Positions 2,486 to 17,766 of a DNA stretch of 20,000 bases are shown one piece after another. The notes under the pieces were generated by a model, which made no database searches, was not told where the DNA came from, and saw only the letters and a list, made by a program, of their open reading frames with translations. This stretch comes from an uncultured virus (IMG/VR IMGVR_UViG_3300042691_024885) (lineage: Duplodnaviria > Heunggongvirae > Uroviricota > Caudoviricetes): the IMG/VR virus record IMGVR_UViG_3300042691_024885; one strand, 5' to 3'. Position numbers and translations under genes: made by a program. Every line of letters begins with the position of its first letter. Position 1 is the stretch's first letter.

Positions 2486-3031
2486 ATGAAGTATCTAATG
2501 TTCGTTTATGGATCAAGTGAATCCATCAATAGTGAAGACATCACAACAAAAATTGGTAAAGAACTACAACCAGTTACAACTGATGGATCAAGTATAAAAT
2601 ATGTTTTTGGTGATGAAAATGCTATTTTTCATTTTAATTCTGATTTGAGTTTTCAGGAAATGACAATTTATGCCGACATGGTAATTGATTCTTTCCCTGA
2701 ATTTTTATTTGTATTATTACCTTTTAATGGAGAAATTTCATCTAACTTTGATGACGATAGGATGAAACATCTTTTGGATGTTGGTCTTGAAAAAAATAAG
2801 ACAGATAAAAACAGAATTGAAATTGAAATAGATGAGGTTTTATTGAATGACGATGCGATTTTTGATGTGTTTATTGGAATGATAAACGATACTAATAATT
2901 CTTTTGGCAAAAAAAAGAAAGAAGTTATTTGTGAAATGACATTGGATGAATTACTTGATAAGATTGCGGATCATGGTATTAACTCATTAAGTGATATTGA
3001 AAGAAAAAAGTTGGAGGAATATTCAAAATAA
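2486..3031 (+). CDS. Hypothetical protein with C-terminal DUF6576-like helical domain
   Basis: C-terminal LDELLDKIADHGINSLSDIERKKL resembles the LDxILDKI..G..SL...EK..L motif seen at the end of Bacteroidota rhomboid-family proteins. Confidence 0.65.
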   Translation: MKYLMFVYGSSESINSEDITTKIGKELQPVTTDGSSIKYVFGDENAIFHFNSDLSFQEMTIYADMVIDSFPEFLFVLLPFNGEISSNFDDDRMKHLLDVGLEKNKTDKNRIEIEIDEVLLNDDAIFDVFIGMINDTNNSFGKKKKEVICEMTLDELLDKIADHGINSLSDIERKKLEEYSK

Positions 3032-3037
3032 ATATAT

Positions 3038-3838
3038 ATGAAAGAAAAGAACACAGGAGCACCTATTAATCAAGAAGAGATATCTCATTACTTGAAAGAT
3101 ATTAGAAGAATTAAAGTGATGACACCTGAAAGAGAGAAGGAGTTGTCAAAAATTATGATGTCTGAAAATTTGACAGAACGTCAAAGAAAGGAAGTTGAAC
3201 ATGAATTACTTATTGGTAATTTGAGATTCGTCATTACTGTGGCAAAACAATATCAAAATCAAGGTTTACCTCTACCTGATCTAATTAATGAAGGTAATTT
3301 TGGGTTGTTAAAGGCGATCAAAAATTTTGATTGGAGTAAAAATCTACGTCTTATTTCATATGCCGTTTGGTGGATTAAACAGTCAATCATTCAATCTCTT
3401 AATGATCATGCGAGAACTATACGACTACCGGTTAATGTGGTTCAAGAATTACAAAAATCTAAGAAGGAGATTGAAAACAATGGAGGTAAATTATCCGATA
3501 AGTTTTCAACCTTACCTAGTACTATTGACTTGGATATGAATATCAATGAAGAGGGTGATACTTTGATTGATATGATTCCAAATATGGATGCGGACGCTCC
3601 TGATTCCGCATTTAATACTAAAGATCTCCTAAAGGATAAATTGATGAAAACTTTGGATGTGTTAGATGAGAGAGAAAGAATAATTGTTGAGGATTATTTT
3701 GGATTGACTGGTACACCAAGAACTTTAGAAGATATTGGTAGTGATTTTGGGCTTACAAAGGAAAGAGTTAGACAAATTAAGGAGAAAGCATTACGTAAAT
3801 TAAGAAACGACTCTTCAGAATTATTTGAATATTTATAA
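3038..3838 (+). CDS. rpoD: Sigma-70 family RNA polymerase sigma factor (RpoD/RpoS-like, short Bacteroidota type lacking region 1.1)
   Basis: Region 1.2 YLKDI, region 2 NLRFVITVAKQYQNQGLPLPDLINEGNFGL...SYAVWWIKQSI...RTIRLP, region 4 TLEDIGSDFGLTKERVRQIKEKALRKLR. Confidence 0.95.
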   Translation: MKEKNTGAPINQEEISHYLKDIRRIKVMTPEREKELSKIMMSENLTERQRKEVEHELLIGNLRFVITVAKQYQNQGLPLPDLINEGNFGLLKAIKNFDWSKNLRLISYAVWWIKQSIIQSLNDHARTIRLPVNVVQELQKSKKEIENNGGKLSDKFSTLPSTIDLDMNINEEGDTLIDMIPNMDADAPDSAFNTKDLLKDKLMKTLDVLDERERIIVEDYFGLTGTPRTLEDIGSDFGLTKERVRQIKEKALRKLRNDSSELFEYL

Positions 3839-3846
3839 AAAAATAT

Positions 3847-3877
3847 TTTGCCAATTAAATAATATCCATTATCTTTG
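3847..3877 (+). promoter_or_regulatory. Bacteroidota sigma-70 promoter (-33 TTTG, 19-nt spacer, -7 TATCTTTG)
   Basis: TTTG 3847-3850 and TATCTTTG 3870-3877, intergenic, upstream of ATG 3902. Confidence 0.8.
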
Positions 3878-3901
3878 TAAGACAAACAAATAAGATAAGA
3901 C

Positions 3902-4294
3902 ATGACGGTAACAGAAAAAATCACAAAACTACAAGAGTTGACCAAAGAGATTAATTCAATTAAAAAAAACTTCAATATAGATATGTTTAATTTCGTTATT
4001 GAGGAGTTTAAAAAAAGAGGATTTGTAACCGATCCACGAGGAAAAGACTTTGAAAGAGGTCTATACAACTCTGAACTGAAAGTGTCAGTTCGCATCGGTA
4101 ATATTGGGACATCATATATTAGTATATCAGTGATTGATATGGTTAATAACGGAATGAATTGGGGTAGTGCGTATAATAAAATACCTGGAGGCACTCAAAT
4201 CAGATTTAATTACCTTAAAAATGATTTTGAGGGGTTCTACAACACAACTTTTACAAATCGTGTAAAAAAATTGGAAGAAATTTTGGCAAAATAA
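3902..4294 (+). CDS. Hypothetical protein (130 aa), probable early gene
   Basis: Intact ORF with its own host-type promoter. No recognisable motif. Confidence 0.75.
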   Translation: MTVTEKITKLQELTKEINSIKKNFNIDMFNFVIEEFKKRGFVTDPRGKDFERGLYNSELKVSVRIGNIGTSYISISVIDMVNNGMNWGSAYNKIPGGTQIRFNYLKNDFEGFYNTTFTNRVKKLEEILAK

Positions 4295-4312
4295 AAAAAA
4301 TATATATCTTTG
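4282..4312 (+). promoter_or_regulatory. Bacteroidota sigma-70 promoter (-33 TTTG, 19-nt spacer, -7 TATCTTTG)
   Basis: TTTG 4282-4285 and TATCTTTG 4305-4312. The 21 nt from the -7 box onward match the 3870 promoter at 20/21 positions. Confidence 0.75.
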
Positions 4313-4317
4313 TAAAA

Positions 4318-4386
4318 CAAACAAAAGTTCTTTATGTCAGAATACATTAAGAACAACCACGGTCAGAACACCGTGGTTTTGTTTTT
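4318..4386 (+). ncRNA. Candidate twin-hairpin small RNA (ends approximate)
   Basis: Lies between a consensus promoter and a U-tailed hairpin. Hairpin 1 is GTTCTT-T-ATGT-CAGAAT-ACAT-T-AAGAAC (4327-4354); hairpin 2 is AACCACGGT-CAGAAC-ACCGTGGTT (4355-4378). Confidence 0.5.
4355..4386 (+). terminator. Intrinsic terminator (region probably bidirectional)
   Basis: Perfect 9-bp stem AACCACGGT/ACCGTGGTT followed by TTGTTTTT, between convergent genes. The adjacent hairpin 4327-4354 has a U-rich tail on the minus strand. Confidence 0.75.
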
Positions 4387-4780
4387 ATACGAAAATTTGA
4401 AGTTGACCCTTACCAACAGTAAAGTCAGATTTTTTCATTACCGTGATAACGATCAGATTCCAATATGTGGACTCTATTTTTTCAGGATCTATAACAAGAT
4501 TCAAGTTATCCCCTTTCTCTCTTGACACAATAAATCTTCTTTTGTGTCTAATATTACCGTCAATAATATTATATACAATTTCATCTGAAGCCTGTTTAAG
4601 TAGTTTAACAATATCAAAATCACTTATTTTATGTTCAGATCCATGTCTCCACTTTCTTTGTTGCGTATGACCATATTCATCATGGTATAAATCAAAATCA
4701 AAAGTAATCTCATTACTTATCTCATGAAATTTCTGTTCCTGTAATAAAGTTTTTTTAATTAATCCCTCTAACGTTGACAT
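4385..4780 (-). CDS. Hypothetical protein, possible DUF4258-like (RelE/BECR-type) fold
   Basis: Likely start MSTLEG at 4780, just downstream of an ATATTTAT motif. Pattern GHTQQRKWRH...ISDFDI...LIVITVM resembles the H-x-x-x-R...I...VITV pattern of DUF4258. Confidence 0.6.
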   Translation of the reverse strand: MSTLEGLIKKTLLQEQKFHEISNEITFDFDLYHDEYGHTQQRKWRHGSEHKISDFDIVKLLKQASDEIVYNIIDGNIRHKRRFIVSREKGDNLNLVIDPEKIESTYWNLIVITVMKKSDFTVGKGQLQIFV

Positions 4781-4840
4781 AATAATAAATATCATATTAA
4801 CTTCTTTATTTTATTTTTTGATATTTATTGATTATAATTT

Positions 4841-5965
4841 ATGATTATGAAAGAGAAATTTTTACCTTGGTTTTTATTGTTCTGTGCATTAGGTTTATCG
4901 GGTGCTGCGGCATTTTATAGTGTTTATGGGTTATCAATAGTGTTTATTGGTGTTGCGATTCCTGTTATAGTAATGGGATCCTTTTTGGAGATATCAAAAA
5001 TCGCAATTGCGACTTATCTTCATGATAAATGGAAAGAAACTTATGGTATTTTAAAAATATATTTAACAATTGCCCTTGTTATATTATCCGTAATAACTTC
5101 AATGGGGATCTATGGATTATTGAGTAGCGGATTCCAACAGAACATTGCAAAACTTGAAATTAATAATAAGAAAATAAAAAACATTGAGGTTAAAAAAGAA
5201 AGATTTGAGGAAATAAAAAAAGATATATCAAAAGAGAAAGGAACACTTGACGGAGACATAACAAACTTAAGGGATGGACTTTCAAAAAATACAACAACTC
5301 AAAGTGTTGATAGAACAACAGGACAATTAATAACAAGAGCAAATAATGCAAATAGAAAAACATTTGAGGATCAATTAAAACAGGCACAAATAAGAAGAGA
5401 TGAACTTGGAAATAAGTTTGATGCGATTAATGATAGTATTACCGAACTTGATGTTACGATACTTGATATGGAGTCTGAAGAAGTGTCATCAAGTGAACTT
5501 GGTGCTATAAAATATTTAAGTGAAGTACTTGGGTGGGATATAAAAAGAACCGCAAATCTTTTTATATTGATCTTAATATTTGTGTTTGATCCATTGGCGA
5601 TAACTCTTGTTATTGCAACAAATCAAGCTTTTAAAGTAAAGAAAAAAGATGAAGAAACCCCTCAAGTAACCCCTAACCATCCCCCAAGTACCGACCAAGT
5701 AATTGATGAAAAAAGAGTTGAACAATTGACTGATTTACAGAAAGAATCAAAAAAGGTGTGGGATAATGTTCGTAGACTTAGAGAGGAAGGTAAATTACCT
5801 CCACCACCAACTGAAGAAGAAGTTTTAGAAGAACCAACCGCACTTGCGTTTACCCCATATGAAATTGAGAGTAAATCAGATAATGAGGAATTTTTCCAAG
5901 AGGATGTATTTTTTCCTGAAGAAAAAAAAACTAAAAGATTAGTATACACAAAGAAAGATGTTTGA
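4841..5965 (+). CDS. Membrane protein: 3 N-terminal TM helices, long coiled coil, further TM segment, Pro/Glu-rich tail
   Basis: Hydrophobic segments at about aa 8-95 and 240-260 (LFILILIFVFDPLAITLVIA) flank a heptad-rich region. Confidence 0.8.
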   Translation: MIMKEKFLPWFLLFCALGLSGAAAFYSVYGLSIVFIGVAIPVIVMGSFLEISKIAIATYLHDKWKETYGILKIYLTIALVILSVITSMGIYGLLSSGFQQNIAKLEINNKKIKNIEVKKERFEEIKKDISKEKGTLDGDITNLRDGLSKNTTTQSVDRTTGQLITRANNANRKTFEDQLKQAQIRRDELGNKFDAINDSITELDVTILDMESEEVSSSELGAIKYLSEVLGWDIKRTANLFILILIFVFDPLAITLVIATNQAFKVKKKDEETPQVTPNHPPSTDQVIDEKRVEQLTDLQKESKKVWDNVRRLREEGKLPPPPTEEEVLEEPTALAFTPYEIESKSDNEEFFQEDVFFPEEKKTKRLVYTKKDV

Positions 5966-16629: not shown

Positions 16630-16929
16630 ATGGGAAATGTTGACGTTGAAATTTATCTATCGCAACTAATTAATTTCTTTGAGAATAATCCAAACGATCT
16701 AATGGAATTAATCGGAGAAGTTCAAAAGGATGACTTTTATAGGAAAGTTAAAGAGAAGTGTGAGGATAATTTGAAAAATGGCGAAGACATTAGTTTAACT
16801 AGAACCCAAATAGTTGATATTGTATTAGAACTTAAGTTTGGTGAAGTAGAGAGAGAAGGAAATGTTGTTGCACATAGTATTGATAAGTTTTTCCAAAAAA
16901 CAAAGTTCGGATTAATAGGATTAAATTAA
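16630..16929 (+). CDS. Hypothetical protein (99 aa)
   Basis: Intact ORF with A-rich start context. Confidence 0.75.
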   Translation: MGNVDVEIYLSQLINFFENNPNDLMELIGEVQKDDFYRKVKEKCEDNLKNGEDISLTRTQIVDIVLELKFGEVEREGNVVAHSIDKFFQKTKFGLIGLN

Positions 16930-17705
16930 TTAATATAAATAACTTTACCATTTTTTAAATAACGATAAATTGAAGTGTGAGAAATACCCATTCCTTCCAT
17001 ACATTCTTTTATTGATGTGTATGTTTTACCTGAATTTACGTCCATTACTTTTTTTGCGTTAGGACTTTTACCGCCTTTATTATCCCTCATTAATGCTGAT
17101 TGTCTTATTTTCTCAATAACTTCTGGGTTTTTAGTTGGATTATTAGTTAGGTTTCTCAACCTCAAATCTTCTCTAGGTTTATTTTTTCTTGGATGATTTT
17201 CAGTCCCATTTAACCAAATGGATTTTTGTGATTCACTAACTTTTTTTTTGGTTTCATTATTTTTCATTGGATTATTTTTTTTCATTCTAATACTTTGTTT
17301 TATTTTATTATGTTGTAGTTTCATTGGATTGTCATCTGAACTCATCCGATTTTTTTGTATTGATTTAACTAATTCTGAAACAATAACACCTTTAGATCCC
17401 TCACCACCATCTGTAAAATTAACTAAAGTCCCCTCATTTAAATCTTTCCTACCATACTTTTTTATGTATTTAATTTCTGATAACATGGATTCATCCCAAG
17501 TTAAAAAATCCTCAATAATCTCAACCGACCAAGAAACTTTATTTGTTATTCTAATCCAATATTTATTATGTTTATGAATAGCATAAGCACGACTATATGT
17601 GTTGGTATCACATTTACCACTAGCTTTTATATTAACGGTTCCTCTACCAACATAAAAAACTTCATTATTGTCTAATCTTCTGTGTAAATAAACATAACAT
17701 CTCAT
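16926..17705 (-). CDS. Free-standing GIY-YIG-like homing endonuclease with NUMOD-type DNA-binding repeats
   Basis: Likely start MRCYVY at 17705. YVYLH...FYVGRG...R...E...YG...GTLVNFTDGGEG, then NPMK/NPTK repeats and a C-terminal NUMOD1/HTH-like KKVMDVNSGKTYTSIKEC...ISHTSIYRYL. Confidence 0.85.
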   Translation of the reverse strand: MRCYVYLHRRLDNNEVFYVGRGTVNIKASGKCDTNTYSRAYAIHKHNKYWIRITNKVSWSVEIIEDFLTWDESMLSEIKYIKKYGRKDLNEGTLVNFTDGGEGSKGVIVSELVKSIQKNRMSSDDNPMKLQHNKIKQSIRMKKNNPMKNNETKKKVSESQKSIWLNGTENHPRKNKPREDLRLRNLTNNPTKNPEVIEKIRQSALMRDNKGGKSPNAKKVMDVNSGKTYTSIKECMEGMGISHTSIYRYLKNGKVIYIN

Positions 17706-17766
17706 ATATATAAATATATGGGTTTGGTATAAACACCCCATAATTTTAAAATTTTTTTTGATGTTA

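Follow-up and report, generated by a model that had tools for sequence, protein, structure and literature searches.

A conserved twin-hairpin RNA of freshwater jumbo phages tracks a convergent RNase-like gene and may act as its RNA antitoxin

What is the function of a short piece of phage DNA that holds a host-type promoter, two hairpins with the same tip, and a terminator? The locus lies in a 20,000-nucleotide stretch from an uncultured tailed phage, here called the window, which sits in a 33-kb virus record encoding a sigma-70 gene, DnaJ, a D12 methylase, and a RAD50-like gene. We infer a Bacteroidota host from the promoter type and from a structural match of a neighboring protein to Tenacibaculum phage PTm1, a match that was not located by sequence. 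The element at positions 4282-4386 is real and conserved, and its features and neighbors are collected in Table 1. The 130-aa gene upstream of it has no match in Pfam or among PHROGs, and its homologs occur only here and in the group of locus L022.

Table 1. Positions of the RNA element and its neighbors in the window
Feature	Position	Strand	Remarks
Phage sigma-70-family gene	3038..3838	+	Pfam, synteny; left border of the variable interval holding the cassette
130-aa accessory gene	3902..4294	+	own promoter 3847-3877; not a constant part of the cassette
Bacteroidota housekeeping-type promoter	4282..4312	+	-33 TTTG 4282-4285; -7 TATCTTTG 4305-4312
Predicted ~70-nt non-coding RNA	4317..4386	+	A-rich 5' leader, two hairpins, U-tail; fold and covariation
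Hairpin 1	4327..4354	+	variable in the lower stem; small internal loop; tip U-G-U-CAGAAU-A-C-A nearly invariant
Hairpin 2 and U-tail	4355..4386	+	stem-loop 4355-4378, loop CAGAAC 4364-4369, tail TTGTTTTT 4379-4386
Convergent partner gene, 131 aa	4385..4780	-	136 aa if started from the upstream ATG at 4795
TATTTAT-type motif	4783..4793	-	directly upstream of the partner gene; putative phage (late) promoter

The promoter overlaps the last codons of the 130-aa gene, and 19 nt separate TTTG from TATCTTTG. In the Bacteroidota -33/-7 consensus, as given in the available text of PMC6847099, the final G of the -7 element lies at -5, which places the predicted start near 4317 and yields an RNA of ~70 nt. 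The TTTG/-7 pattern alone is not rare (four found in the window, 2.0 expected), so the support for the promoter comes from its conservation in relatives. Both hairpin tips read GU-CAGAAY-AC within 4327-4378, with the loop CAGAAT of hairpin 1 at 4338-4343, and the segment 4316-4388 folds at -22.8 kcal/mol (z = -5.6), a stability that 0 of 200 shuffles equals. Paired self-closing 10-mers with 9 of 10 letters alike and 18-40 nt apart number four in the window versus 0 or 1 in 20 shuffles. A terminator scan marks 10 sites of the window as terminator-like, hairpin 2 with its U-tail among them, and this hairpin is predicted to double as an intrinsic terminator. As judged from the sequence, the element is single-copy per genome: the GU-CAGAAY-AC 10-mer has exactly two copies in the window and exactly two in six of seven related phage records searched, the seventh adding two single 10-mers without an evident hairpin. 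A 63-codon frame does start inside the RNA at ATG 4334, and since only 3 of 24 homologs keep this ATG we rejected a short peptide as the product. The sequence-only reading of this DNA, which described a Bacteroidota consensus promoter, a U-tailed terminator, no credible ORF between them, and two adjacent hairpins with a shared tip, was accurate on each of these points.

A scan of viral contigs for the twin motif returned 49 stretches. At least 73 locus records carry both motifs and a terminator-type second hairpin, many of them re-fetches of one contig; at least 24 distinct cores stand among the twin-motif records from the viral, metagenome, and stem-anchored scans, and the sigma proteins of these loci are 48-100% identical to that of the window. 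Our alignment comprises 24 rows: the window, 22 distinct cores, and a single hit of the model. It excludes the window's twin and a truncated copy. In it, 95.8% of pair cells are paired, 8 of 18 pairs have changed on both sides, and the pairing score exceeds all 500 shuffles and all slid registers; for hairpin 2 the paired fraction is 99.5%. The covariance check in relatives that the earlier reading had proposed bears out the fold. G-U cells outnumber A-C cells by 13 to 3, which identifies the plus strand as the folded one. Conservation reaches 99% in the tip of hairpin 1, 77% in its lower stem, 60% in the 5' flank, and 97% in the loop of hairpin 2, the tip figure being biased because most rows were found by the motif; this is the reason for the anchored tests described below.

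The same alignment bears on two other proposals. The sequence-only reading had suggested that ACAAAA and TTTTGT close a three-way junction. The two words can indeed pair in the window's genome, but all six pairs form in only 4 of 24 copies and the C-G pair only in the window, and we rejected the junction as a conserved feature. It is also highly improbable that the 10-mers, spaced 25-27 bp apart as direct repeats, are DNA sites recognized by a DNA-binding protein or base-pairing seeds for an RNA target. The nearly fixed repeat spacing would suit DNA sites, and CAGAA is complementary to UUCUG, a word present in the tRNA-like anticodon loop of L376 (by eye, a putative tRNA-Gln(CUG)); however, compensatory and G-U changes preserve both stems, which DNA sites would not need, and the motif does not recur at other places in these genomes.

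Relatives of the RNA are found in a family of freshwater jumbo phages of about 300-320 kb, where the element is accessory. It is present at 4 of 80 loci anchored on sigma and at 1 of 80 anchored on the amidase, both counts including the window's own phage, and none of 12 near-complete relatives has a strong match, which makes a replication origin or packaging site unlikely. An Rfam search, also proposed by the earlier reading, gave no match at E <= 5 near 4317-4386, and 12 related loci gave nothing at gathering level, with sub-threshold noise only from two short stretches. Across 185,579 prokaryote genomes, none of 32 pattern matches places both motifs in hairpin tips. Three metatranscriptome contig sets from the same study contain 0 records on 3000-5900, a result that is uninformative either way.

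Looser motif scans gave mostly unrelated sequences among the matches listed. One phage group (L003, L038, L041, L042, and L048, at ~3001-3054) has the same 10-mer in palindromic operator-like repeats downstream of a similar promoter, an architecture that differs from that of the window's RNA. In a separate family of phage sequences (L464, L470, L492, L510, L521, L524, and L529), a conserved GC-rich hairpin region lies ahead of a similar terminator stem, and the loops are unrelated. Five bacterial contigs (L376, L393, L625, L626, and L636) carry two GTCAGAACAC direct repeats right after a tRNA-like 3' end, without hairpins; these are possibly recombinase arm sites of an integrated element.

The gene that converges on the RNA encodes a protein with conserved residues H38-x3-R42-x2-R45 and T113-V114. 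Across 101 family members, H38 is kept in 101, R42 in 90, R45 in 73, and T113 in 99. An N-terminal leader ends in L/I/V-x-E15 (L-Q-E15 in the window), and E15 is present in 97 of the 101. Sequence searches found 64 close relatives and 290 representatives at E <= 0.001; the cultured phage collection holds only distant homologs, in unannotated huge phages. The structural model has a pLDDT of 84, with residues 33-41 poor, and its top fold-search rows are RelE, HigB, BrnT, CdiA-CT, a colicin-type RNase, and T4 RegB. These rows span 62-92 residues at Z 3.7-5.7 and rmsd 3-5 Å, where the trust level of the tool is ~8, and the second-ranked match is an unrelated transpeptidase. Foldseek returned a RegB-type endonuclease from a viral library (E 6e-5) and nothing at E <= 0.001 from the PDB. 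DUF4258 matches weakly in only 2 of 101 family members, and PHROGs and PDB sequence searches gave nothing useful. Such weak matches point to a BECR/RelE-like alpha/beta RNase fold as the probable one for this model. No small antitoxin ORF lies beside the gene at this locus.

TATTTAT or a one-letter variant stands ahead of the partner gene in all 27 upstream regions inspected by eye. The motif precedes 6 of 40 contig genes, four of them with similar leaders, versus ~3% by chance; these occurrences include ones ahead of 4841, 9075, and 14773, and several such genes have leaders ending in L/V-x-E. From these sequence patterns we infer that TATTTAT may be a late promoter and the L-x-E leader a capsid tag. 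In many relatives, the terminator hairpin behind sigma includes the TATTTAT word.

To what extent do the RNA and this gene travel together? A partner-anchored scan that used the protein alone, and was therefore blind to the RNA, retrieved 19 loci. All 17 loci of the partner's own clade (63-100% identical) carry both loops, while in the two sister-clade loci (44-45% identical) a promoter precedes a twin hairpin whose loops are different. Partner-linked copies have the promoter in 20 of 20 cases, with diverged spacers, and copies that lack the partner, which we call orphans, in 0 of 14. Of the distinct RNAs reached through the partner, 9 of 10 have both loops perfect, versus 1 of 6 reached at the orphan site by way of an unrelated anchor gene, the single perfect one being the query's own locus (Fisher p 0.008; rows not independent). 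Close kin inflate all of these linkage counts. The RNA and the gene are convergent, on opposite strands, both here and in mapped relatives. Together these comparisons show at the sequence level that retention of the promoter and of perfect loops goes hand in hand with that of the partner gene. Two members of the protein family lie apart from such RNAs: the complete genome G008 encodes one at another site, its His-Arg motif intact, and lacks RNAs of all three classes looked for, and a distant homolog in a 484-kb phage has no adjacent RNA.

Convergence raises the question of whether the RNA is antisense to the 3' end of the partner mRNA, in a type I-like manner, or whether the hairpins only stop two convergent transcripts. 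The U-tail meets the partner stop codon at 4385-4387, the minus strand of the element also folds, with a U-run after hairpin 1, and orphans persist as terminators, all of which such a role would accommodate. We nevertheless regard it as very unlikely. Both loops have the same orientation, and G-U pairs favor the plus strand. In 7 of the 17 partner-anchored loci the RNA lies 1.0-1.9 kb from the partner, behind inserted genes, and in 6 of these 7 the terminator that adjoins the partner gene shares the stem and differs in the loop. The loop is thus unnecessary for termination, and its conservation at this distance does not require overlap with the mRNA. Counted as distinct loci, the loops are perfect in two of three such distant cases, and two of the three have the separate terminator. 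Pairing with the 5' region of the partner is absent (167 of 200 shuffles are as good). The sequence-only reading had set its RNA against plain back-to-back terminators, and loop conservation, covariation, and the promoter contrast between linked and orphan copies come down on the side of the RNA: the data support a discrete, promoter-driven small RNA with two conserved loops of a protein-binding type, as predicted from sequence comparison.

Orphan RNAs are located after the sigma gene or, relocated, after a 98-aa gene ~12 kb away. A scan anchored on the 98-aa gene covered 51 loci, of which 7 have strong and 5 weak plus-strand matches to the model; beyond the six distinct RNAs counted above, five loci there retain only a relic or the terminator. 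Loops of the orphans decay, with natural variants that carry A for Y or a C-to-U change, while the terminator stays, which is explained if hairpin 2 also ends transcription; eight orphan copies, most of them found by the motif itself, keep perfect loops. Among five orphan-bearing records, the 93% complete one, with a decayed orphan, lacks a partner homolog, another has a partner-family member of a different clade with its own RNA, and completeness in the remaining three is 6-44%. A quick sigma tree (54 rows) requires at least four changes of the linked state and puts sigma-site orphans at three or more places, which indicates joint loss of partner and promoter more than once, the counts not being independent. 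In the window, a 271-aa gene (16926-17741, minus strand) is inserted between a 99-aa gene and a DUF932 gene, the junction at which relatives carry relocated orphan RNAs; locus L032 has both the insert and an orphan RNA.

The leading idea of the sequence-only reading was a sponge of the CsrB or anti-defense kind, a decoy for a host RNA-binding or defense protein, which would merely share a cassette with the neighboring gene. An early host-type promoter and two identical loops would fit a decoy, as would the patchy spread of the RNA in a variable interval (the 4 of 80 sigma loci) and the orphans that retain perfect loops. The distribution runs the other way. The integrity of promoter and loops tracks a neighboring phage gene, with neither a promoter in orphans nor a linked partner without one; the loops differ when the partner clade differs; and the prokaryote genome matches and Rfam contain no cellular structure with these loops. 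We consider a sponge quite unlikely. The reading's last option, an antitoxin-like RNA, which it named without considering the linkage to the partner gene, is the one that gains support.

The interval after sigma holds further structured RNAs. Thirteen of 80 sigma loci have a partner-family gene, and each such gene faces a structured RNA: the twin hairpin, a variant twin hairpin, class II, or class III. The variant (loops CAUCAU and UCAAAGCG) accompanies the sister partner clade (L323:6567-6632, L598), and L270:4800-4860 resembles a decayed orphan of it. Class II, a conserved RNA of ~125 nt (L272:3256-3390 and relatives), is found at 26 of 80 sigma loci, in most cases directly behind the sigma stop codon; it comprises a terminator, two further hairpins in which compensatory changes are visible, and, probably, a pseudoknot at the 5' end. 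Class III (L296:4850-4975, L306:6520-6655, L319:7990-8125, and L297) is branched, ~130 nt long, and without a U-tail, its last stem overlapping the last codons of the partner gene that converges on it. L291, L293, L305, L335, and L336 add at least three structured spacers to these, most of them promoter-preceded and terminator-ended, one being common to L291, L305, and L319 and another to L293 and L336. None of these RNAs matches Rfam, and the interval is a convenient source for the discovery of RNA motifs. RNA class departs from the protein tree outside the window's clade: class III sits on two branches that are far apart, and one branch has both class II and class III. By eye, a YRGAA word recurs as the CAGAAY loops of class I, as CRGAAK after the class II pseudoknot, and as UAGAAG in class III, and is absent from the L323 variant; it could be a common binding word or chance in AT-rich sequence.

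Dependence between RNA and protein appears one-sided. After removal of duplicates, 62 complete intervals from sigma to the late operon remain, and a structured RNA is found in 11 of 11 with the partner family and in 18 of 51 without it. The protein would thus need an RNA that can stand alone, which is the asymmetry of toxin and antitoxin. If five other structured spacers (judged by eye) are counted, the partner-less intervals with structured RNA rise to 23 of 51, so the interval is an RNA hotspot in any case. The asymmetry matters for a further alternative, in which the two would make up a functional ribonucleoprotein, or the protein would process the RNA as a substrate or be activated by it, and the pair would jointly act on the host, for example on translation or a defense system. 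Such a complex would account for the same linkage, promoter retention, and orphan decay, and the T4 RegB-like matches show that this kind of fold can be a processing enzyme. It predicts mutual dependence, however, which the RNA-only intervals and the lack of protein-only ones (0 of 11) speak against; RNA and partner also appear to use different promoter types, and the RNA is without a variable guide segment. We judge this alternative possible, if unlikely.

One-way dependence, joint loss of promoter and loops, and loops that change with the protein clade fit an RNA that restrains its neighbor. We therefore favor, with moderate confidence and on comparative sequence evidence, an RNA antitoxin that binds and restrains the phage's own RNase-like neighbor protein. 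The two identical loops would be binding sites for the product of the convergent gene, keeping it inactive, and one RNA might engage two protein molecules through its two tips. The partner would be a toxic RNase. The RNA would be made from its host-type promoter at DNA entry and the protein late, from the phage-type promoter, and the L-x-E leader may direct the protein into the head. A bolder version, which we regard as rather unlikely, turns the pair into a virion-delivered poison with an RNA antidote, a selfish element of lytic jumbo phages with one BECR protein family and at least four interchangeable antidote folds (twin hairpin, variant twin hairpin, pseudoknot RNA, and multi-branch RNA). 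Here the late RNase would be loaded into heads by its leader and injected with the DNA, and silencing it would require that the incoming genome have a gene for the matching RNA, transcribed immediately by the host polymerase; in a mixed infection, competitor heads would be loaded too and their progeny would fail.

How would an RNA antitoxin of this kind relate to known systems? CsrB and RsmZ show one short motif on several hairpin loops with unrelated stems, the loops being many and GGA-bearing. The window's RNA likewise displays one short motif on loops with unrelated stems, but it has only two CAGAAY sites, no GGA, and no Rfam match, and the linked protein is phage-encoded. Type I systems need complementarity to the toxin mRNA, whereas the RNA here lies at a distance in the 7 loci described above, though overlap is possible in the window. 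A full-text search of accessible papers, covering main texts, did not find the RNA or its pairing with the partner described, and neither "non-coding RNA" nor "BECR" occurs in the available text of a jumbo-phage overview (PMC7824862). The partner resembles RelE/ParE, DUF4258, colicin-like BECR ribonucleases, and T4 RegB in predicted topology and His/Arg motif, with weak matches. In the available parts of PMC11980606 and 10.64898/2026.08.28.747851, BECR/RelE families are described with protein antitoxins or immunity proteins, and the term "RNA antitoxin" is absent from the main text available for both.

Two kinds of RNA antitoxin come closest. According to the available text of 10.1101/2025.04.15.648962, RCd22 (RF03085) bears two hairpin motifs in one RNA and neutralizes AbiF by direct binding. 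The likeness lies in a short, promoter-driven, terminator-ended RNA beside an RNase gene on phage DNA, and the AbiF-type feature of two hairpin motif copies in one short RNA is present here. AbiF, as described there, is Abi_2/Cas13-related and co-transcribed downstream of its RNA, whereas the partner is a 131-aa BECR/RelE-like protein encoded on the opposite strand behind its own putative promoter, and the second motif of the window's RNA, unlike that of RCd22 in that account, is the terminator loop itself. The abiF motif RF03085 has no match at E <= 5 near 4317-4386, and neither the 130-aa nor the 131-aa neighbor matches Abi_2/AbiF in Pfam. Type III systems (ToxIN, CptIN, TenpIN, and AbiQ), some of which occur in phages, share the repeated protein-binding units between promoter and terminator and an RNase toxin, as far as the available text of PMC12283969 describes them. 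There the antitoxin is upstream of the toxin in one operon with a terminator between, and its RNA consists of tandem H-type pseudoknot repeats, whereas the window's pair is convergent on opposite strands and its RNA, by covariation, is two simple hairpins. The class II pseudoknot-like RNA of other partner clades is nearer to type III, by look only. ToxN is not among the Pfam or fold-search rows listed for the partner, of which the top ones are RelE-like; absence from such lists is not decisive. The best reading by analogy is a pair that would work like AbiF/RCd22 or the type III antitoxins while being a member of neither. The module is tiny, with one 131-aa gene and one 70-nt RNA. Binding-type RNA antitoxins are known for ToxN-like and AbiF toxins; if our reading is right, a BECR/RelE-like RNase would be the third protein fold, restrained by a 70-nt RNA in a convergent layout, on a jumbo phage rather than as a host defense.
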